NCBI GenBank assembly: GCA_026387835.1
Contig: JAPLKZ010000013.1
Span: forward strand, 89,254-153,253
Source: Candidatus Saganbacteria bacterium
Lineage (GTDB): Bacteria; Margulisbacteria; WOR-1; JAKLHX01
Length of the DNA: 64,000 bases
Reading direction: 5' to 3'
The notes under the pieces were generated by a model. That model saw nothing but the letters and a program-made list of their open reading frames with translations. It was not told the DNA's origin and ran no database searches. Made by a program: the position numbers and the translations under genes. Positions 8,810 through 31,140 of this stretch are shown piece by piece; positions within the stretch are counted from its first letter, which is position 1, and the number at the start of each line of letters is the position of its first letter.

Positions 8810-10261
8810 CTAAACGGTCCTTCTAAACTTATCCAGCCCCTGGATCTTAAGCAAATTGTTGACCATTCCCACGGCATCCTTTTTCAGGTCCGATACGGAA
8901 GATGCCAATTCGATGTAATCTTTTTTGTAGATCAGATCAGAGCCGGGGATGGAGGCAAAAACATTATAATAATCCTTGGTGACGGGGTTGTTCTTTACCG
9001 TTTCGGCGAAGTGTCTTATTGAAGCCGCGGAATCGCCCGCTTCATGGTACACTTCGCTGATCGCATACCTCGGCTCCTTGATCTCCATATTTATCATCAC
9101 GCGCATACCGGGCACACAAACGCGGACAGCCGGGATGTCCAATTTGAGATGGGTCTTGTCGATGACAACGGTCTTGTATCCGGATTTTTCCAGTATCCCC
9201 ATAATATAGAGTATCTCTTCCTTTATATCAGGCTTGCACGCGCTGGGGACCTCATCCATCGTGACGCTTTTTTTACTTTTCAGGAGCATCTCCGTGTTAT
9301 ATAAAGGAAGGAAACCCGTATGTTTTTTAGGCAGCGCGGACATGACCTCTTTCCAGTTGACATTCAGCTCTTCCTGAGAAACGCACATAAGGGAAAAACC
9401 CTCAAAATATTCTGCCAGGGCCCTGATCAGCGCTTTTTGCGGGTCCGTGCTAGCCCCCTGGCCGACCCCCTGATAAGTAAGTTTGTCTTTGTCCTGTTCG
9501 CGGATGCCGTAAGCTATGAAGGTCGGCACTTTGAAATCAAAAGAGATGTCCTTTATTGTGAATTTGATCCCGTTCTTCTGAGAATTTTCCAGAACTCTTG
9601 TCACAAGAAGATTATTGATGCTTTCAAGCTTCAGGTCATTTCCCGGTTCCATGTCCATGAAAAGACGGCAGATGTTCTCCCTTTCTATGACCTCGCAAAG
9701 GGCCTGCAGTATAGCCTCTTCCATCGTGTTGCCGGCTGCGAGCCCGTTGGACCCGACCACCATGTTATGCCAGTTCACCGGATAATAGAACGGTTTCCGG
9801 TCGTTAAGGCACGTGCCCAGGACCCATTTAAGAGGTATGTCCTTTATTTCCCTGAGCAGTTCATCGCGGTCTTTCAGGTCGATGAAATTGCAGAGGAAAT
9901 ATGATTCGTCAACTGTCTGGATATCCCCCTTTTTGATCTCGTTAAAGCTTTTCAGGCAATATCCCTCATAATGTTCATAATCAAAATGCAGCCACGAATA
10001 CCGTTCCGCGAATTCCATGACCGCGCTGGCCTTTGATTGTTCCGGAGTGAGGCCCTTGCCGCTGGTCTTAAGTTTGTCGCTTATGCTTGAAAAAGAATAA
10101 GCGCCTTCAATGGCGTCTTTCCTGGGTTCGATCCTGAAACTTGACAGGTCAAGCATTGTTTCCAGATGTTTTAAGGCGTTTTCTATTGTCGAGGAAGGGT
10201 CCGTGACCTTGTCCTGGTCAAGCGTGTATTTTTTCGGGCAACTTTTAAGTTCGATCACCAT
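8810..10261 (-). CDS. YcaO-domain protein (stand-alone)
   Basis: 483 aa; YcaO-like motifs (GKGLTPEQSKASAVMEFAERYSW, GSNGLAAGNTMEEAILQALCEVIERE); no TfuA or precursor gene adjacent. Confidence 0.65.
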   Translation of the reverse strand: MVIELKSCPKKYTLDQDKVTDPSSTIENALKHLETMLDLSSFRIEPRKDAIEGAYSFSSISDKLKTSGKGLTPEQSKASAVMEFAERYSWLHFDYEHYEGYCLKSFNEIKKGDIQTVDESYFLCNFIDLKDRDELLREIKDIPLKWVLGTCLNDRKPFYYPVNWHNMVVGSNGLAAGNTMEEAILQALCEVIERENICRLFMDMEPGNDLKLESINNLLVTRVLENSQKNGIKFTIKDISFDFKVPTFIAYGIREQDKDKLTYQGVGQGASTDPQKALIRALAEYFEGFSLMCVSQEELNVNWKEVMSALPKKHTGFLPLYNTEMLLKSKKSVTMDEVPSACKPDIKEEILYIMGILEKSGYKTVVIDKTHLKLDIPAVRVCVPGMRVMINMEIKEPRYAISEVYHEAGDSAASIRHFAETVKNNPVTKDYYNVFASIPGSDLIYKKDYIELASSVSDLKKDAVGMVNNLLKIQGLDKFRRTV

Positions 10262-10305
10262 AGGTCATTTCAATTATATATGTTCGCTGTCTTTATTCAA
10301 GAGGA

Positions 10306-11010
10306 TCAAACGGTCCCGGATAGATAAGCTTTCCTTGTCTTTTCAGGGAACTTTTCTATCGCGTACCTCAGCATGGTTCGAGGCATCTTCTTGTAATGCC
10401 CCTTTAAAAAATCCTCTTCTGTCTTTTGTGAGCATCTTTTTCCCGTCTCACGAAGCATCCAGCCGACGGCTTTGTGTATGAGGTCGTGCCCGTCATTTAA
10501 AAGGACCTTTGCGACCTTCAGGGTTTCTTTCGGATCGCCTCTTTTAATATAGTTAAAGGTCGATAATATCGAGATCCTTCTTTCCCAGAGAGAGCTTGAT
10601 CGCGCAAATTTATACAGGAGGCTTTTATCCTTGTCAGAAAGATATTCACCTACTATCTGTTCCGCAGTAAGGTCTATCAGGTCCCAGTTGTTGATGAACC
10701 TCGTGTTATTAATGTATATATTAAATATCTTCTGCTTTTCGGCCTTGTCTGCCTTGCTATACTTCAAAACCAATATCAAAAGAGTGGTTAACCTTTCCTC
10801 ATGATATTTGGAATGAAGAAGCTTTATGCAGTCGGGCAACGTGATATCTCTGAACTTTTTTACAATGTTTCTGACATCCGGCACAACGATACCAAGGAAA
10901 ACGTCTCCTTCCCCGTACTGCCCGGGCCCGGTCTTGAAGAACCCTGCCAGTATCTTTGCCTTTTGCGGGGAAGCGCAGTCGCGAAGGTCTTTTTTCAGTT
11001 TTGAAAGCAT
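10306..11010 (-). CDS. DNA alkylation repair protein, AlkD-like HEAT-repeat glycosylase family
   Basis: 235 aa from ATG at 11010; the longer ORF to 11382 would overlap tRNA-Ser so was trimmed; family-typical helical repeat sequence. Confidence 0.65.
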   Translation of the reverse strand: MLSKLKKDLRDCASPQKAKILAGFFKTGPGQYGEGDVFLGIVVPDVRNIVKKFRDITLPDCIKLLHSKYHEERLTTLLILVLKYSKADKAEKQKIFNIYINNTRFINNWDLIDLTAEQIVGEYLSDKDKSLLYKFARSSSLWERRISILSTFNYIKRGDPKETLKVAKVLLNDGHDLIHKAVGWMLRETGKRCSQKTEEDFLKGHYKKMPRTMLRYAIEKFPEKTRKAYLSGTV

Positions 11011-11030: not shown

Positions 11031-11117
11031 CGGAAGGAGCAGGATTTGAACCTGCGGTGCGCTTGCACGCACAGTAGTTTTCAAGACTACCGCCATAAAC
11101 CACTCGGCCATCCTTCC
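11031..11117 (-). tRNA. tRNA-Ser (anticodon TGA), type II with long variable arm
   Basis: GGAAGGATGGCCGAGTGG...CTTGAAA anticodon loop...TTCAAATCC T-loop; 7-bp acceptor stem GGAAGGA/TCCTTCC; no encoded CCA. Confidence 0.85.
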
Positions 11118-14285: not shown

Positions 14286-15881
14286 ATGAACATATTACCC
14301 TTTTTAAAGAAACCCTCGACGGGTTCGGCATATGAAGACGAACGAAATATCTATGTCGGCAACCTGAGCCTGGATGACCGGCCGGCAAGCGATCTGAAAG
14401 ACCTGAGCGGCTTTTTCAAGAGAATACTTCACAAGAGGATAGACAGGTTCTGTCCCGACAAAAGAAAGGTCATCACCAGATTTCTCGAAATAAGTGACGC
14501 GGCCCATCTGGGATCCATCATTAAAAGGGCTCTCGATCTTGATAAGGGCCGGATATCGGCAAAACTCCGCGAGGTCATGGCCGAATTTTCCAAAAGGCAT
14601 AGATCCATCGAGAATATATTTATGCGGAATTACCTGAAAGTCGCGGCTGCCGCCGAGTCCATATCACCCTCCCCGTCAAAAGAAAAAAAGCTTCTCATAG
14701 GATCCCTTTTCACTATGGAATATTCTTATGAATCAACAAGCCTGTTCAATCCTTCTGTTGTGCTGTATCCAAAGCAGAACGGCCTTAAAAAGGGGCAGGT
14801 CAGGGTCGTTTTCTGTTTCAGGGCCACAGGGGAGGGGCATATCTCATCGATCATCTTCAGGAGCGCGGTGATAGATAAGAACAATGACATCTATCTTGAG
14901 CCGATAAGCCGCTTTGCCTCGACCCCCGCAGTTAACATGGACCCTACATACGAGAAGAAGATCTTCGCTGAAAAATTAAAAGACATAGGTTCGCTGGACG
15001 AAACAGCGGCGGCGATACTCGGCCGTCTCCCGGATAATTTTTCGTATAACGAACTTATGAACGAGATAAAAGACTTTCTCCCTTCAGGATCAAATGACGT
15101 CGGCATGGCATCTAAGCTTTCTCCGGTCAAGATGAAGTGGCTTGCCGACTGTAATTATGAGGTCTCATTTCCGCCTGATCAGCTGATATCCGAGAGAGTT
15201 TTATTCCCTGTCTCACCTACCGAAAGCAACGGAATGGAGGATGCCAGGTTCGTGCGTTTTACGCGGGACAGCGGAGATTTTATTTATTACGCGACGTATA
15301 CGGCATATAACGGCATCTCTATTCTGCCGCAGATACTTGAGACAAAAGATTTTCATCATTTCAAGATGTCAACACTGAACGGGCCTTTTGCAAAAGACAA
15401 AGGCATGGCGCTTTTTCCCAGAAAAATAAACGGCAGATACGCGATGATATCAAGGTCCGACGGTGAAAATCTTTTTCTGATGTATTCCGATAATCTGAAT
15501 TTCTGGTACGAAGCAGTAAAGATGCAGGAACCGAGCCGGACATGGGAGATGGTCAAGATAGGCAACTGCGGCTCTCCGATAGAGACAAAGGAAGGCTGGC
15601 TGCTTTTGACGCATGGCATCGGTCCGATGAGAAAATACTGCATAGGGATAGAACTTCTTGACCTGAACGACCCGTCAAAGGTGATCGCGAAGATGGAAGA
15701 GCCCCTTTTAAGCCCCACGGAAGAAGAGCGGGACGGTTACGTGCCGAATGTCGTATATAGCTGCGGTTCTATCCTTATCCGCGATAAGCTGATCATCCCG
15801 TATGCCGAATCCGATTCGGTCTCAAGCATAGCGGTGATAAGGCTTAATGAACTTCTTGATAAACTCTTGAAAAAGCGCTGA
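14286..15881 (+). CDS. GH130-like glycosidase/phosphorylase domain protein with about 280 aa N-terminal extension
   Basis: C-terminal half resembles GH130 beta-propeller (GMEDARFVRF..., YYATYTAYNG, repeated blade-like segments); N-terminal region unrecognised. Confidence 0.55.
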   Translation: MNILPFLKKPSTGSAYEDERNIYVGNLSLDDRPASDLKDLSGFFKRILHKRIDRFCPDKRKVITRFLEISDAAHLGSIIKRALDLDKGRISAKLREVMAEFSKRHRSIENIFMRNYLKVAAAAESISPSPSKEKKLLIGSLFTMEYSYESTSLFNPSVVLYPKQNGLKKGQVRVVFCFRATGEGHISSIIFRSAVIDKNNDIYLEPISRFASTPAVNMDPTYEKKIFAEKLKDIGSLDETAAAILGRLPDNFSYNELMNEIKDFLPSGSNDVGMASKLSPVKMKWLADCNYEVSFPPDQLISERVLFPVSPTESNGMEDARFVRFTRDSGDFIYYATYTAYNGISILPQILETKDFHHFKMSTLNGPFAKDKGMALFPRKINGRYAMISRSDGENLFLMYSDNLNFWYEAVKMQEPSRTWEMVKIGNCGSPIETKEGWLLLTHGIGPMRKYCIGIELLDLNDPSKVIAKMEEPLLSPTEEERDGYVPNVVYSCGSILIRDKLIIPYAESDSVSSIAVIRLNELLDKLLKKR

Positions 15882-15959
15882 CTGCTATTAACTTCCACGT
15901 TTCGCTATTGAACACCTTACTGGTGTTGAAAAAATCAACAGTATTGATGGGATAAGTTG

Positions 15960-16048
15960 TCACGAATTGTCTCACGAATGAGTTTATCGCGAATAACGCC
16001 AATAAGAATTTTGCTAATTGTCGCGAATTATCACTAATCACACGAATC
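15960..16048 (+). repeat. left terminal inverted repeat and array of five CACGAAT/CGCGAAT heptamers
   Basis: TCACGAATTGTCTCACGAAT at 15960-15979 matches the reverse complement of 16523-16546 apart from a 4-nt indel; heptamers start at 15961, 15974, 15988, 16022, 16042. Confidence 0.65.
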
Positions 16049-16093
16049 GGGCGGGGAAATTGCTGGTAGGTCCATCATAGGAGGAAATTAATT

Positions 16094-16474
16094 ATGGGCG
16101 CAAAACTTATCCATGCCGAATTGAGCTATAAGTTGGTCGGGGTTCTTTACAAAGTATATAACGAGCTTGGCGGCGGGTATCAGGAAAAAATATATCAATC
16201 TGCGGTCAGAAAAGAGTTGAAAAAAAGCGGGATAAATTTTACCGAACAATTGGGAATAGATCTGTTATATGACGACAAAAAAATAGGCAGATATTTTCTT
16301 GATTTTGTCATTGAGAACAAAATCGTGCTGGAGCTCAAGGTTGTCCCAAGATTTTCACCCCGCGACATAATGCAGGTGCTCGGTTATCTTAAACAGACCG
16401 GACTGGAGCTCGGCATTCTTGCCAGCATGAACAGAAATGGCATTATTATGAAACGTATACTGAAAGGAAATTAG
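16094..16474 (+). CDS. GxxExxY family protein (PD-(D/E)XK-like small protein)
   Basis: 126 aa; family-typical N-terminus ...HAELSYKLVGVLYKVYNELGGGYQEKIYQ...; RBS aggagg. Confidence 0.75.
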   Translation: MGAKLIHAELSYKLVGVLYKVYNELGGGYQEKIYQSAVRKELKKSGINFTEQLGIDLLYDDKKIGRYFLDFVIENKIVLELKVVPRFSPRDIMQVLGYLKQTGLELGILASMNRNGIIMKRILKGN

Positions 16475-16478
16475 CGTT

Positions 16479-16556
16479 ATTCGTGTAAATTCGAGTTAAT
16501 AAGTGAGATCTCTATTCGTGTGATTCGTGATACAGACAATTCGTGAAAGATTCGTG
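16479..16556 (+). repeat. right terminal inverted repeat and array of ATTCGTG heptamers (reverse complement of left array)
   Basis: ATTCGTG at 16479, 16514, 16523, 16539, 16550 plus a degenerate copy at 16489. Confidence 0.65.
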
Positions 16557-16627
16557 ATAAATAGGCCTACACACAATTCTCATAATCTGCACTTAACTCA
16601 TCCTCCATTGCGAAAGTGAGAAGAACT

Positions 16628-18871
16628 TTACTCCAAGTTCTCCAGCTCGTATTCTTCCATCATCGCAAGTAGTGCAAGAAGGAAAGATACCGTGCTCTCG
16701 GCTCCCTGGTTCATGCTGGCGCCGCCCTGCATAAGGCCGTCGGAGCATCCTTTTGAGGCCATATCATACATGGGAACTCCCAGATCGTTCTCTCCAAGGA
16801 ACCAGTCGAACGCCTGTTTCATCTTCTTCAGGTATCCGGTGTCATGCGTCACCCTGTAGGCCGATTGCAGCGCCATTACCATCGAAGCGGCATCTATGGA
16901 CTGCTGGTCAAACTGGGCTTTTTTGCCGCCTTTGGTGAACCAGCCGTTACTTCCCACGACTGAAAGGATGCCGTCCTTAAAAACGATCTTTTCCAAAAAG
17001 GCCAGAGATTCTTTCGCGGTCTTCAGCAGTTTTTCGTCTTTAAGGATACTATAAGCATTAAACAGCGACATGGGCATGATCGCGTTATCATAGCAAAGGA
17101 TATCCTCGAACCATTTCCACTGATCGCCCGCATGCTTCTGATATGCACCCTCCAGGTCATTTATTATTTTTTTCAACAGCTCATATGCCTGTTCGTCCGA
17201 ATTAAATATCCTCAGGTAGCACACTATCCCCAGGGCAGCAAAGGCTTTGCCTCTAAGATTAAGCTTAGGGATAATATTGAACGATTTCTTGATCATTTCC
17301 GCGGCAAAAGACCTGTAGGCCTCGTTCTTTGTCCTCCAGATAAGAAACCCAAGCGACCAGATCGCCCTGCCGTTACTGTCGTCCGAGCCCTTTTCCTCCA
17401 GATGGTTCCTTTTATAATCTATAAAATTGGCAAAGCCGCCGTCTTCTTTCTGCATGTACTTGACAAAACTGCAATAGATGGAAAGCAGGTCCTCGGCTTC
17501 TTTGTCCTCCAGAAGAGATGCCGCCCACGCGGCAAGCATTATCGCTCTTGCGTTATCGTCAAGGCAGTAGCCGGTGCTCCTGTCAGGCACGAGATATTTT
17601 GCGTGCTGGATCATCCCCGTATCATCGGTCAGCCTTTTTATGTGGGTCAGGTCAAAGGCCGGCAATCCCATCACCGACGTTGACTTGGGGTAATGCGAAA
17701 AGACCGGTTTCTTTTCGGAGGAGACTTTTGAAAGGAGCTCCGCGTATTTTGCTGATATCTTCTTCCATGTCATCTGCCTTCCGGACTCATAAGCTTTTTT
17801 TTGCAGGGCCTTGAGTTTTTTTTCGTTCATTAAGAGGTCCCTGAGTATCTCCGAGAGTTTTTCTGAGTCGTTAAAATCAAACAAATATCCCCTGCCGCCT
17901 GACAGCATCTCTTCGGCGTACCAGTAGGGGGTGGAGATTATCGCATTGCCGGCGCCGATCGCGTACGAAAGAGTGCCGCTGACGACCTGAGCTTTGTTCA
18001 TATAAGGAGTGATATAGATGTCAGATGCCGAAAGCCAAGCGTAAAGCTCTTCTATTGTCACGAACCTGTCATCGAAAATGACATAAGGCCTGAGGTTCAG
18101 CTTGCCGACAAGCTTGATAAGGCTTTCCCTGTATCTCTCTCCCTGTTCTTTTTGGACATGAGGATGGGTCTTTCCCAGTATCACGTAAGTGAGGTCGGGA
18201 AAATCTTTTATCACGGAAGGCAGTGACTTTATGACCGTCTCTATCCCCTTGTTGGGGGCTAAAAGGCCGAACGTCAGTATCATCTTTTTGCCTTCAAGCT
18301 TGAAGCGTTTTTTATAATGTGAGGAGTCAAGAGAAGTGAAATCCGGCGTCCCGTGAAGTATCAGCTCTATTTTTTCGCCCGGCGCGTTATAGACATCTTT
18401 CAGCAGTTCAATGCTTTTTCTGCTCATGACGACGATATTGTTGGAGCGCTGGATGATCTCCGACATTATCCTCTTCTGGTTGGCGTTGGGATTTTGAAGC
18501 ACGGTATGAAGTGTCGTGATAAGCGGCACGTTAAGCCTTGACAGAAGAGAAAGTATATATATTCCATCCCATCCGCCGAATATGCCGAATTCATGCTGCA
18601 GGCAGACAACCTGGGCGTTGCTGGTGTTTATTATGTTGGCGGCATCAAGATAATCCTTCTGCCTGTTCTGGTTGATAGAAAAGATCACTTCTTTGGGATA
18701 ATCGTAGATCCGGCCCTCGTCATTTAAAGCGATGGCAAAGATGCTTGACTTATCGGACAGCCTTTCGGTGACGGCGTTGCACAGGTCGCTGGTGAAGGTG
18801 GCGATGCCGCATATGCGCGGAAGATAGTTCCCGATGAACGCGACATTAAGTTTTTTCTTGCAGTGGAACAT
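16628..18871 (-). CDS. GT4-family glycosyltransferase fused to a C-terminal domain of unknown function (about 350 aa)
   Basis: N-terminal half has group-1 glycosyltransferase features; ATG at 18871 chosen, an in-frame TTG at 18901 would add 10 aa. Confidence 0.7.
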   Translation of the reverse strand: MFHCKKKLNVAFIGNYLPRICGIATFTSDLCNAVTERLSDKSSIFAIALNDEGRIYDYPKEVIFSINQNRQKDYLDAANIINTSNAQVVCLQHEFGIFGGWDGIYILSLLSRLNVPLITTLHTVLQNPNANQKRIMSEIIQRSNNIVVMSRKSIELLKDVYNAPGEKIELILHGTPDFTSLDSSHYKKRFKLEGKKMILTFGLLAPNKGIETVIKSLPSVIKDFPDLTYVILGKTHPHVQKEQGERYRESLIKLVGKLNLRPYVIFDDRFVTIEELYAWLSASDIYITPYMNKAQVVSGTLSYAIGAGNAIISTPYWYAEEMLSGGRGYLFDFNDSEKLSEILRDLLMNEKKLKALQKKAYESGRQMTWKKISAKYAELLSKVSSEKKPVFSHYPKSTSVMGLPAFDLTHIKRLTDDTGMIQHAKYLVPDRSTGYCLDDNARAIMLAAWAASLLEDKEAEDLLSIYCSFVKYMQKEDGGFANFIDYKRNHLEEKGSDDSNGRAIWSLGFLIWRTKNEAYRSFAAEMIKKSFNIIPKLNLRGKAFAALGIVCYLRIFNSDEQAYELLKKIINDLEGAYQKHAGDQWKWFEDILCYDNAIMPMSLFNAYSILKDEKLLKTAKESLAFLEKIVFKDGILSVVGSNGWFTKGGKKAQFDQQSIDAASMVMALQSAYRVTHDTGYLKKMKQAFDWFLGENDLGVPMYDMASKGCSDGLMQGGASMNQGAESTVSFLLALLAMMEEYELENLE

Positions 18872-18973: not shown

Positions 18974-19046
18974 GAGCCACTAGCTCATCTGGTAGAGCAC
19001 TTGCCTTTTAAGCAAGTGGTGCCGCGTTCGAGTCGCGGGTGGCTCA
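18974..19046 (+). tRNA. tRNA-Lys (anticodon TTT)
   Basis: Acceptor GAGCCAC/GTGGCTC, anticodon loop CTTTTAA, T-loop TTCGAGT. Confidence 0.85.
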
Positions 19047-19052
19047 AATTAT

Positions 19053-19128
19053 GGGCCCGTGGTGTAGCCTGGTCTAACACGCATGCCTGTCACGCATGAG
19101 ATCGAGGGTTCAAATCCCTTCGGGCCCG
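19053..19128 (+). tRNA. tRNA-Asp (anticodon GTC)
   Basis: Acceptor GGGCCCG/CGGGCCC, anticodon loop CTGTCAC, T-loop TTCAAAT. Confidence 0.85.
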
Positions 19129-19134
19129 TTTGTT

Positions 19135-19207
19135 GGCGGGTTAGCTCAGTTGGTAGAGCAGTAGCCTGAAAAGCTATGTGTCCTCAGTTCAATTCTGAGA
19201 CCCGCCA
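19135..19207 (+). tRNA. tRNA-Phe (anticodon GAA)
   Basis: Acceptor GGCGGGT/ACCCGCC, anticodon loop CTGAAAA, T-loop TTCAATT. Confidence 0.85.
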
Positions 19208-19259
19208 AATTATCTTTTTTGCTGTGGGCTTGCGCCGAGCGAGTGAAGCGAGTCGAGGC

Positions 19260-19332
19260 GCCGACGTAGCTCAGCTGGTAGAGCAGCTGTTTCGTAAACA
19301 GCAGGTCGTCAGTTCAATCCTGACCGTCGGCT
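19260..19332 (+). tRNA. tRNA-Thr (anticodon CGT)
   Basis: Acceptor GCCGACG/CGTCGGC, anticodon loop TTCGTAA, T-loop TTCAATC. Confidence 0.85.
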
Positions 19333-19376
19333 TTAATAAGTTTTATGTTAGAATATGCTATCTGAAAGGAAGAAAT

Positions 19377-19751
19377 ATGTCAAAAAAAATACTTGTGATC
19401 GATGATGAAAATGATGTGGTGGAGATACTCAAGACGATCCTTGAGCATGAAAAATATGAAGTGATAAGCAGTTACGGCGGTGAAGACGGGCTTAAAAAAG
19501 CGATAGCATCTAAGCCCGACCTCATAATCACGGACATAATGATGCCGGGGATGGACGGTTTCGAGTTCGTGCAAAAGCTTAAAGAGAACATGGAGACGTT
19601 CAATATCCCCGTGATCATGCTGACCGCAAAGGACCAGGGAGTTGACAGGGAAAAAGGCCTGGCGCTCGGCGTGATAGCTTACATAGTAAAACTGTTCGAT
19701 CTTGAAGAGCTTATATCCACGGTAAAAGACGCAGTCGAAAAGAAAAAATGA
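19377..19751 (+). CDS. single-domain response regulator (CheY-like receiver)
   Basis: 124 aa from ATG 19377 with RBS gaaaggaag; receiver motifs (ILVIDDE, phospho-acceptor Asp in IITDIMMPGMDG, Lys in AYIVKLF); the longer ORF from 19176 would read through tRNA genes. Confidence 0.8.
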   Translation: MSKKILVIDDENDVVEILKTILEHEKYEVISSYGGEDGLKKAIASKPDLIITDIMMPGMDGFEFVQKLKENMETFNIPVIMLTAKDQGVDREKGLALGVIAYIVKLFDLEELISTVKDAVEKKK

Positions 19752-19763
19752 ATGAGCCGAAGC

Positions 19764-19836
19764 GCTGGCGTAGCTCAGCTGGTAGAGCAGCGGTTTTGTA
19801 AACCGCAGGTCGTCAGTTCAATCCTGACCGCCAGCT
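19764..19836 (+). tRNA. tRNA-Thr (anticodon TGT)
   Basis: Acceptor GCTGGCG/CGCCAGC, anticodon loop TTTGTAA, T-loop TTCAATC. Confidence 0.85.
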
Positions 19837-30438: not shown

Positions 30439-31038
30439 TCAAACAAACCCAAACTTCCCCTTCGGTTTGCTTTCGTCTTTCAATATCTTGTTGATCGCGC
30501 TGAAGAGACTGATGATGTCCTGGTCGTGCCGCCCGATCTTGTGCTCTATCTCTGACAGCTTCTGGATCAACTCTTTGTTGAATGTAAGCAACTGCCTAAT
30601 TTTTACGAATGCTCTCATTATGGCTATATTGACCTGGATGGCCCGTTTGCTTGTAAGTACAGAGGAAAGCATGGCTATTCCTTGTCCTGTAAATGCGTAT
30701 GGAAGGTATTTGATATGTCGTCCGCGCATGGAATTTGGGTCATGCTTGTGGTCGAATTTCTTTAAGGTTGCAAAATGCAACCTTAAACAATCCAATTCTT
30801 CCCATGTGAGTTGGAACATAAAATCTTTGGGAAATCTTGAAATATTTCTATTTACTTGCTGTTTTAATCTTTTGATGCTTTCCTCATATAATGGAGCCAG
30901 GTCGGCATCCAACATGACTTTCTGGCCTCTTAAAAGGAAGATACTGGACTCTATTGATTCGGCGGAAATAATCATACTGTTGGATTTTTCAACATCTTGG
31001 TCTACGGATGCCTTTTTGTTACGCACACTTTTTGGCAT
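30439..31038 (-). CDS. ORF6N-domain protein (KilA-N-like DNA-binding family common in mobile elements)
   Basis: 199 aa; ...RGQKVMLDADLAPLYEESIKRLKQQVNRNISRFPKDFMFQLT...KYLPYAFTGQGIAMLSSVL. Confidence 0.75.
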   Translation of the reverse strand: MPKSVRNKKASVDQDVEKSNSMIISAESIESSIFLLRGQKVMLDADLAPLYEESIKRLKQQVNRNISRFPKDFMFQLTWEELDCLRLHFATLKKFDHKHDPNSMRGRHIKYLPYAFTGQGIAMLSSVLTSKRAIQVNIAIMRAFVKIRQLLTFNKELIQKLSEIEHKIGRHDQDIISLFSAINKILKDESKPKGKFGFV

Positions 31039-31140
31039 AAATATCCTCTCTTTCCCGGATCAAGGCTTAAAGCCAGCAGCTTACAAATGGTCAATGAGCA
31101 ATTTATCCGCCACGACAAAGGCTCTATCGCTAGGGTTCTA

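Follow-up and report, generated by a model that had tools for sequence, protein, structure and literature searches.

A predicted GxxExxY nuclease gene between mirror-image heptamer arrays: one member of a widespread, apparently undescribed cassette family

In a stretch of 64,000 nt from a Candidatus Saganbacteria contig (JAPLKZ010000013.1, positions 89,254 to 153,253), referred to here as the window, a small GxxExxY gene is flanked on both sides by heptamers that face each other in opposite orientation. The question raised by this locus was what kind of genetic object it represents. The first-pass annotation of the window had offered two answers, either a miniature cassette, mobile or recombining, with a gene for a PD-(D/E)XK-like protein, or regulator binding sites arrayed on both sides of a gene. 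On the evidence presented below, the locus is best read as a mobile cassette, compact and either selfish or semi-domesticated, that has an array of several protein-binding sites at each end; the protein bound there is probably its own nuclease. The features of the locus were as follows:

Stop codon ending at 15881: GH130 gene (PF04041), convergent with the GT4 gene
15882-16627: inserted segment as a whole (746 bp), filling exactly the space from the GH130 stop to the GT4 stop, missing in two relatives (L039 and L040)
15882-15956: left outer segment within the insertion, outside the clear array; decayed units or DNA carried along
15957-16047, plus strand: left array of seven direct CNCNAAT units (15961, 15973, 15988, 15997, 16022, 16031 and 16041)
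15961, 15973 and 16041, plus strand: exact CACGAAT, upstream of the GxxExxY gene
16050-16064, plus strand: sigma-54-type -24/-12 promoter-like motif, GGCGGGGAAATTGCT, spaced as in TGGCAC-N5-TTGCW; a sequence match only
16079-16084, plus strand: Shine-Dalgarno AGGAGG, 9 nt 5' of the ATG, read from the sequence
16094-16474, plus strand: GxxExxY gene, 126 aa, predicted minimal PD-(D/E)XK nuclease
16470-16560, minus strand: right array of seven ATTNGNG units (16470, 16479, 16489, 16514, 16523, 16539 and 16550)
16479, 16514, 16523, 16539 and 16550, minus strand: exact CACGAAT, downstream of the GxxExxY gene
16561-16627: right outer segment within the insertion, outside the clear array
16628-16630, minus strand: stop codon of the GT4/GT1 glycosyltransferase gene, convergent with the GH130 gene

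The location in a convergent gap between a GH130-like gene and a GT4 gene was as first described, and the proposal of a PD-(D/E)XK-like protein was borne out by two family models. The 126-aa protein matched TIGR04256 (GxxExxY) over residues 9-122 with an E-value of 5.6e-30 and 104.1 bits (cutoffs 35 and 22), and also Pfam PF13366, PDDEXK_3. The GxxExxY motif and the PD-(D/E)XK catalytic residues were found on a restriction-endonuclease-like fold. No HUH/Y1 (IS200/IS605-like) transposase was present in the cassette, for which Pfam and NCBIfam gave only PDDEXK_3/GxxExxY; its sole ORF is this putative nuclease, and the DDE, HUH, Ser and Tyr transposase classes are absent. A sequence search of the protein against PDB chains returned nothing. 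Between copies of the gene in different contexts, dN/dS was 0.02-0.08, and the window protein, predicted to be a minimal PD-(D/E)XK nuclease, is intact and subject to strong purifying selection. A single-sequence phmmer search recovered 8272 clusters (50% identity). Two-domain fusions of about 265 aa were frequent among them, which suggests that a dimer may be the working unit.

The 746-bp segment was identical in 10 other, independent metagenome assemblies and is therefore not an assembly artefact. An Rfam scan of the window found only tRNAs, and scans of the cassette locus for sigma-70 promoters and terminators gave nothing above shuffles.

The heptamers were then counted on both strands. 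The 64-kb window has 11 exact CACGAAT sites, where shuffles gave a mean of 9.7, and eight of the 11 fell within 15961-16556, three on the plus strand upstream of the gene and five on the minus strand downstream. About 0.09 sites would be expected in 600 bp, and the clustering and strand split together would arise by chance with a probability of about 1e-13, by our own estimate. The first-pass annotation had listed five CACGAAT/CGCGAAT units upstream and five to six ATTCGTG units downstream; these counts were confirmed, with five CRCGAAT units upstream (15988 and 16022 added to the exact three), and downstream five ATTCGYG units with ATTCGAG at 16489 as the sixth. When the family-wide unit CNCNAAT/ATTNGNG was used, seven units were found on each side. 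A degenerate TGCTAAT unit was also present at 16012 within the left array, and the right-array unit at 16470 overlaps the stop codon of the gene.

An imperfect inverted repeat had been attributed to the outermost 20-24 nt. Inverted repeats were indeed found, one of 13 nt with 100% complementarity (TCACGAATTGTCT/AGACAATTCGTGA, 15960-15972 and 16534-16546) and one of 19 nt at 95%, but the similarity was not confined to the outermost nucleotides: the arms match as collinear inverted repeats over about 90 nt, scoring 66 against 19.8 +/- 2.8 in shuffles. An HMM built from 64 arms of other elements matched the window at 15945-16050 on the plus strand (E 4.9e-19) and at 16467-16568 on the minus strand (E 7e-16). 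These two arms were its only matches, and neither a further copy nor a solo array was found in the remaining 63 kb. Further copies of the inverted repeat, which the annotation had proposed to look for, exist in other loci and organisms, but not elsewhere in the window.

The extent of the element was defined by comparison with relatives. The two closest GH130 relatives with usable contigs, L039 (GH130 81% identical) and L040 (66%), keep the convergent GH130-GT4 pair, and in them the two stop codons are 0 and 2 nt apart. Hence, the window contains 746 extra bp, and this placement of the insertion leaves the GH130 and GT4 proteins with full C-termini. The element is larger than the roughly 590 bp first given, the arrays alone spanning 15957-16560, with 75 nt of the insert beyond the array on the left and 67 nt on the right. 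These outer segments were considered as decayed arms and the idea was set aside, since they showed only a weak collinear inverted match to each other (score 20, reached in 42 of 1000 shuffles; p ~0.04). In L039 and L040, the gene and the repeats were missing together at this position; neither relative had the gene there without the repeats. A second filled/empty pair was found in L126, where 707 bp (9797-10503) are missing from L252, the flanks being 87-90% identical. This site lies between a terminator and the leader of the next gene, and the insert runs about 35 nt past its right array.

To place the locus in its family, a profile from the homologue alignment was run on genome and metagenome contigs, which yielded 108 further loci. 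Array statistics were calculated on 99 homologous loci with complete flanks, from Margulisbacteria, Saganbacteria and CPR bacteria. The 150 nt upstream contained a mean of 3.9 forward and 0.4 reversed units, and the 150 nt downstream a mean of 4.1 reversed and 0.3 forward units, against a background of 0.16-0.17 per equal length. At least three units on each of both sides were found in 64 of the 99 loci, and the numbers on the left and right sides were correlated (rho 0.52, p 1.6e-6). The relaxed unit was (T)CNC(G/T)AAT, with start-to-start spacings mostly of 9-13 nt (mode 10); in this clade the unit can be written (AT)CNC(G/T)AAT, about one helical turn apart. The arms formed collinear inverted repeats in nearly all homologous loci. 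Flanks of the same type were thus carried by nearly all relatives of the GxxExxY gene, and the pattern in the window is not a local oddity. The two observations that the annotation had named as refuting its proposal, a lack of similar flanks on other GxxExxY genes and the gene without repeats at this position in relatives, were both not made.

The cassette was most compact in CPR bacteria, in which it is reduced to four units, the gene and four units. The arm plan is fixed there (AATCNCTAAT-CA-ATCNCNAAT-TTT-ATCNCNAAT-W-ATCNCNAAT) and common to different elements. The start and stop codons of the gene touch or overlap the inner units, and the stop and start codons of the neighbours abut the outer units. 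Distant GxxExxY relatives on plasmids of cultured bacteria showed the same layout with other units. In Bacteroides finegoldii, three CACAGAGGA-type units were observed upstream and three CCTCTGTG units downstream of the GxxExxY gene, and the flanks of the gene in Treponema carry CACGGATTCG and CGAATCCGTG. Each cassette can be described as a single gene, encoding a predicted nuclease of about 125 aa, between mirror-image arms of three to eight units of 7-9 nt each. The window locus is one member of this widespread and apparently undescribed family.

Evidence that the cassette has moved was obtained from closely related copies in unrelated places. Three loci (L058, L063 and L065) share 96-98% protein identity, have unrelated neighbours, and their nucleotide homology is limited to about 630-690 bp. 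The sharpest case was a pair of CPR loci, L026 and L029, with 88% protein identity and unrelated neighbours, which have exactly 471 bp in common, from the first unit to the last; identity was 84.5% across these 471 bp and about 52% in the flanks, which is the random level. Altogether, 60 different upstream neighbour families were counted among 97 loci. The cassette is therefore a distinct DNA unit: a given site either has it or lacks it, near-identical copies occur at unrelated sites, and homology between copies does not reach past the outer ends of the arrays. As in an insertion sequence, the family combines terminal inverted repeats with presence or absence at a site and with occurrence at unrelated sites.

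Furthermore, gene-less array pairs of 85-190 bp were detected (L025, L090, L094, L022/L088, L032, L013, L043 and L081). They were few and lay mostly near full elements. The pair at L039:1070-1261 is homologous to the window arms, spacers included, and still contains GGAAATTAG, the final two codons of the gene together with its stop, and the pair in L032 keeps a longer remnant of the 3' end of the gene. These remnants identify the gene-less pairs as internal-deletion derivatives, which relate to full cassettes as MITEs do to insertion sequences. L039 has both the window-type empty site and, elsewhere, a gene-less derivative; the site holding this derivative was sought in the window and was not present. 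The GxxExxY gene itself was frameshifted or truncated in L036, L037 and L049. With two filled/empty pairs, near-identical copies in unrelated contexts and gene-less derivatives, the first proposal of a miniature mobile cassette was upheld at the level of comparative genomics.

The junctions were less regular. The two filled/empty pairs and the sharp CPR junctions were inspected for a target-site duplication, a check that had been suggested from the start, and none was convincing; the short matches were inconsistent, with CT as a candidate in the window, ATTTG as a candidate in L126 and nothing at the CPR junctions. The cassette does not always have exact ends outside CPR bacteria. In many elements a promoter module lies outside the left array, so that the array is not always the left boundary, and L058 carries 45 nt that correspond to host flank at the L065/L126 site. 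Some copies have also stayed in place. A recurrent site was found between the LemA and HtpX genes, where 13-15 CPR loci carry the cassette, and at these loci the cassette showed 63% identity, against 66% and 60% for the neighbour genes. Being as diverged as its LemA and HtpX neighbours, the cassette appears to have been resident there through very long vertical descent rather than frequent movement. L022 and L032 are divergent paralogues of one genome, and L063 and L073 are from one sample on different contigs. The lack of a convincing target-site duplication, the inexact ends, the single copy in the window, the divergence of paralogues within one genome and the residence between LemA and HtpX all weigh against a mobile cassette.

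Arm identity between copies was 75-97%, where the synonymous divergence of the gene (pS 0.18-0.54) would predict 46-82%. The arrays are thus better conserved than synonymous sites and must be functional, and both the gene and the arms are under purifying selection.

The function of the arrays bears on the second answer of the first-pass annotation. Developed further, this alternative makes the gene a resident, regulated one: the arrays would be operator or enhancer sites, for autoregulation by the nuclease through a repression loop or for a sigma-54 activator, over a potentially toxic nuclease with a host function, and gain and loss would be due to ordinary recombination. Of 100 homologous loci, 48 indeed had a TGGCA-N6-ATTGCT motif upstream of the gene, where the background was 0.02 per 260 nt, and the window motif shows GG at -24, GC at -12 and the canonical spacing. 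A sigma-54-type motif thus belongs to about half of the elements, and phased direct repeats are typical of cooperative regulator binding; the long persistence at LemA-HtpX, the strong purifying selection on the protein and the single copy in the window also agree with a resident gene. Nevertheless, CPR cassettes keep both arrays and have no promoter motif, and regulation leaves unexplained the equally conserved mirrored array downstream, the end of homology at the array ends in unrelated contexts and the gene-less array pairs at other sites. We consider this explanation unlikely as a whole. The two first answers are not exclusive, however, because the arrays look like phased protein-binding sites on DNA that also define the ends of the cassette.

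An action at the RNA level was also considered, in which the arms would pair in the transcript and form a stem, either a substrate of RNase III like those of rRNA intervening sequences or a stabiliser of the mRNA, host operons being insulated. In the RNA fold of 15950-16570, the arms paired in both the minimum-energy and the centroid structures (z -2.95), the gene-less pairs fold as hairpins, and the cassette was mostly co-oriented with both neighbours (47 vs 17). Pairing in a fold is nevertheless what inverted repeats would produce anyway, and the arms are only about 75% complementary. Wobble-compatible changes accounted for 60 of 372 arm mismatches (16%), the random share, with no G.U bias, and the commonest mismatch (61 cases), a G in the left arm against a T in the reverse complement of the right arm, places G opposite A in RNA. 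The position of the promoter motif pointed in the same direction. In most elements that have it, the motif precedes the left array by about 30 nt, but it follows that array in the window and in about 10 other elements, whose left array would therefore be outside their own transcript; since the position varies, the left array is not consistently part of the transcript of the cassette. Different elements also had conserved spacers; a fixed geometry of protein on DNA is thus enough to account for the similar arms, and no pairing constraint is needed. Finally, an asymmetric motif that is direct within an arm and inverted between arms makes the two sides alike to a binder of double-stranded DNA and unlike to a binder of single-stranded RNA. 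An RNA-level device was judged improbable on these grounds. The narrower candidate of a stem processed by RNase III, like those of rRNA intervening sequences, was rejected for lack of compensatory or wobble maintenance of pairing at a wobble share of 16%.

If the arrays are bound by a protein on DNA, the favoured candidate is the cassette's own nuclease. No other gene was consistently near the cassette in about 100 loci. At the two N positions of the unit, the arms of one element resembled each other (cosine 0.755 vs 0.60 +/- 0.02 when permuted), this unit flavour tracked the relatedness of the proteins (Mantel r 0.32), and the unit sequence differs in distant branches of the family, such as Bacteroides and Treponema. 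Common descent alone could produce both the flavour match and the Mantel correlation.

The opposite assignment makes the nuclease a passenger, for example a defence or toxin gene, on arrays that some other factor would recognise, whether a host protein or the recombinase of another element. It would account for the viral contigs that have CACGAAT x3 arrays with a 10-nt period and no GxxExxY gene, among them L149, in which the arrays bracket an unrelated 247-aa ORF in inverted orientation, and a small hydrolytic nuclease is in itself unlikely as a sole transposase. The viral pattern scan gave at least 120 loci, none with a GxxExxY gene, but it would be expected to give at least 100 chance matches by our estimate, which would cover most of them, and many matches were plain tandem repeats. 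Neither PADLOC (known anti-phage defence) nor PHROGs (phage families) models matched the window protein, and the association with one gene holds across phyla and 60 neighbour families, with a unit sequence that changes with the protein lineage. We therefore give this passenger model little credence, on a level with the RNA-level device. L149 and L169 stand out among the viral-contig loci.

The reading preferred here, a mobile cassette with its own nuclease as the binder, can be put as a sequence of steps. The arrays would serve as double-stranded-DNA binding sites of the nuclease, dimers of which could bridge mirrored units and so bring the left and right arms into contact. The nuclease would next cut at the arrays or immediately beyond them, whereby the cassette would be released or copied; its integration would be left to recombination or repair by the host, with short intergenic gaps as targets, namely after stop codons, beside terminators or between operon genes. 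In Margulisbacteria and Saganbacteria, including the window, the cassette would be expressed from its own putative sigma-54-type promoter, and in CPR bacteria, having no promoter of its own, it would be read together with its neighbours. Movement would be episodic, and some copies would remain at one site for a very long time, like domesticated RAYT transposases. To this mechanism as a whole, with a nuclease acting on phased arrays at both ends, cutting nearby, and host repair completing the insertion, we assign a probability of roughly 0.55. We know of no strand-transfer chemistry for a PD-(D/E)XK hydrolase alone. A stronger version is put forward only tentatively, as doubtful but possible: GxxExxY cassettes might form a new class of mobile elements and include the smallest autonomous one (471 bp, in CPR bacteria), the nuclease of about 125 aa being the only element-encoded factor, which would assemble on both arrays, synapse them and excise the cassette, with host repair reinserting it and some lineages becoming long-term residents.

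The cassette was also compared with known systems. It shares with insertion sequences and MITEs a discrete unit with inverted ends, present or absent at a site and found in unrelated contexts, and the existence of internally deleted, gene-less derivatives. As in Tn7 and Mu, each end has several directly repeated sites and the two ends are inverted; Tn7 also uses a PD-(D/E)XK nuclease, TnsA. Unlike insertion sequences, the cassette has no DDE, HUH, serine or tyrosine recombinase, its sole gene encoding a predicted hydrolytic nuclease of 126 aa, and it shows no convincing target-site duplication, an apparently low copy number and a left boundary that is sometimes beyond the array. The 471-bp CPR cassette is shorter than any insertion sequence known to us. 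By kind, the cassette may be classified from these features as TIR-bounded mobile DNA in which both the enzyme and the multi-unit ends are unusual.

With the RAYT/REPIN system, the cassette has in common a small single-copy gene of the nuclease type, short repeats in inverted orientation at its flanks, vertical persistence, purifying selection and gene-less inverted repeat doublets. RAYTs belong to the HUH/Y1 transposases and have single-stranded palindromic REP hairpins as their substrates, and REPINs number tens to hundreds per genome (PMC3116915; PMC3337134; bioRxiv 10.1101/2021.07.10.451892). In contrast, the cassette has a PD-(D/E)XK protein and non-palindromic phased units, and a dispersed repeat population was not seen. 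The candidate of a REP-like population of dispersed arrays was rejected on this point, no further arrays being found in the remainder of the window or of three loci of 18-20 kb. In its apparent combination of episodic mobility, vertical persistence and strong selection, the cassette resembles RAYT/REPIN more closely than a typical insertion sequence.

Homing endonuclease genes and the ORFs of 23S rRNA intervening sequences are likewise small selfish nuclease genes wedged between host genes, with a recurrent site comparable to LemA-HtpX, and the cassette shows the intact, frameshifted, truncated and deleted copies expected of an invasion-decay cycle. However, homing requires a homologous empty allele and no inverted arrays, whereas the cassette has conserved arrays and near-identical copies in unrelated sites. 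A homing endonuclease gene restricted to a homologous recognition site was rejected in view of the 60 neighbour families in 97 loci and the close copies in unrelated contexts. The nuclease domains of Cas4, Hjc and restriction enzymes share the PD-(D/E)XK fold; the cassette protein lacks the Fe-S cysteine set, the CRISPR context and the partner domains.

In the only survey found to list the family, one of PD-(D/E)XK proteins, the function of PF13366 is given as Unknown (PMC3424549). Among the mostly open-access literature searched, papers mentioning GxxExxY contained nothing on its biology, and no published description of a nuclease gene with mirrored heptamer arrays was found, the search having largely covered sources other than subscription journals. 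GxxExxY/PDDEXK_3 proteins are annotated in thousands of genomes. The mirrored phased arrays, the precise insertion into tiny intergenic gaps and the hairpin-like gene-less remnants make a defined genetic object of this anonymous family, with a mechanism that can be tested. The cassette accounts for odd intergenic repeats in CPR, Margulisbacteria and Bacteroides genomes and for spurious repeat-encoded tails on some predicted proteins, and it persists even in highly reduced CPR genomes. If the stronger version put forward above is true, a function would be assigned to a family that comprises more than 8000 protein clusters and is at present listed as unknown. If the nuclease is the sole mobility factor, the cassettes would be a new class with the smallest autonomous element known, a PD-(D/E)XK counterpart of RAYT/REPIN, and would possibly set a new lower size limit for autonomous mobile DNA. 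The family may also offer a compact nuclease directed by sequence arrays, of practical interest.

Intergenic heptamers have additionally been described as the cyanobacterial STRR and the Beggiatoaceae TAACTGA repeats (PMC4679880), in lineages related to the window organism. Unlike the units of the cassette, these are contiguous tandem heptamers, with no 9-13 nt spacing, no mirrored arms and no link to GxxExxY. One STRR heptamer, CCCCAAT, fits CNCNAAT and is a lead only.

Compound arrangements, in which a full cassette is directly adjoined by an extra arm or by a gene-less pair, recurred among the homologous loci in two orders:

L022/L088/L089, L090, L042 and L121: array, reversed array, gene, reversed array
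L013, L043 and L081: array, gene, array, reversed array

In L081, the entire left arm was duplicated 3' of the gene. These arrangements suggest that insertions occurred within or next to arms already in place, or that a rearrangement was linked to replication. Furthermore, the cassette copy of the homologous locus L058 included about 45 nt (L058:1279-1320) that correspond to the host flank at the site shared by L065 and L126 (L126:9750-9796). Since the same 45 nt were found in L252, the corresponding empty site, flanking DNA was carried along with this copy or its left end was cut imprecisely.

Many Margulisbacteria-type cassettes (L044, L049, L055, L052, L058, L063) possessed a short conserved hairpin, e.g., GTGTCGAGATTTCGACAC, located upstream of the sigma-54-like motif. 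The stem of this hairpin was preserved by paired changes between copies (GACGA/TCGTC versus GGCGA/TCGCC). In the L126 cassette, which is the same element as that of L065, the conserved left-end hairpin was interrupted by a 20-nt palindrome, CCTGCCTGCCGGCAGGCAGG (L126:9808-9830). This palindrome was found again beside another cassette in a different MAG, upstream of the L016 element, and could represent an independent, very small mobile palindrome.

The sigma-54-type -24/-12 motif (GGC-N7-TTGCT, with an A-rich spacer) was detected by sequence match at two positions of the window, the second of them about 55 nt upstream of an ORF of 199 aa. The family names of this ORF and of the one adjoining it were read from the translations, not from a profile search:

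16050-16064, + strand: sigma-54-type motif
31097-31111, - strand: sigma-54-type motif
30439-31038, - strand: ORF6N/KilA-N-like ORF, 199 aa
29741-30397, + strand: reverse-transcriptase-like ORF, adjoining the previous one

Judging from these sequence matches, accessory or mobile genes of this lineage may be driven by sigma-54-type promoters.

A 9-nt direct repeat, AGGAAATTA, was present at the ribosome-binding site (16082-16090) and at the stop codon (16465-16473) of the GxxExxY gene in the window. If a deletion occurred between these copies, the gene would be cleanly lost. GGAAATTAG was kept at the centre of the gene-less derivative of L039, a relative lacking the window insertion.

The protein library search revealed many family members of approximately 260-275 aa in which two GxxExxY domains are arranged in tandem (P0244, P0251 and P0253, among others), suggesting that proteins with a single domain function in dimeric form. 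Additionally, some predicted homologues (P0006, P0014, P0057, P0103) carried C-terminal tails such as ...SRNSREFEN, and the gene of L058 ended likewise. In our reading, these tails stem from read-through into the repeat array on the right, which would make them artefacts of annotation that the arrays give rise to.

Arrays of three CACGAAT units with an exact 10-nt period were also found in two viral contigs, L149 and L169:

L149:5848-5874, + strand: one array
L149:6642-6668, - strand: one array
L149:42-68: one array
L169, between 2929 and 10872, - strand: six arrays, all on one strand

In L149, arrays in inverted orientation bracketed an unrelated ORF of 247 aa with no Pfam match. The GxxExxY gene was absent from both of these array-bearing contigs; therefore, the CACGAAT unit may also have a role for other genes or for a phage regulator.

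Just past the GT4 gene, the convergent neighbour 3' of the window cassette, five tRNA genes were clustered at 18974-19836, overlapped by a response-regulator ORF (listed as 19176-19751). The window contained a further tRNA gene:

11031-11117, - strand: tRNA gene
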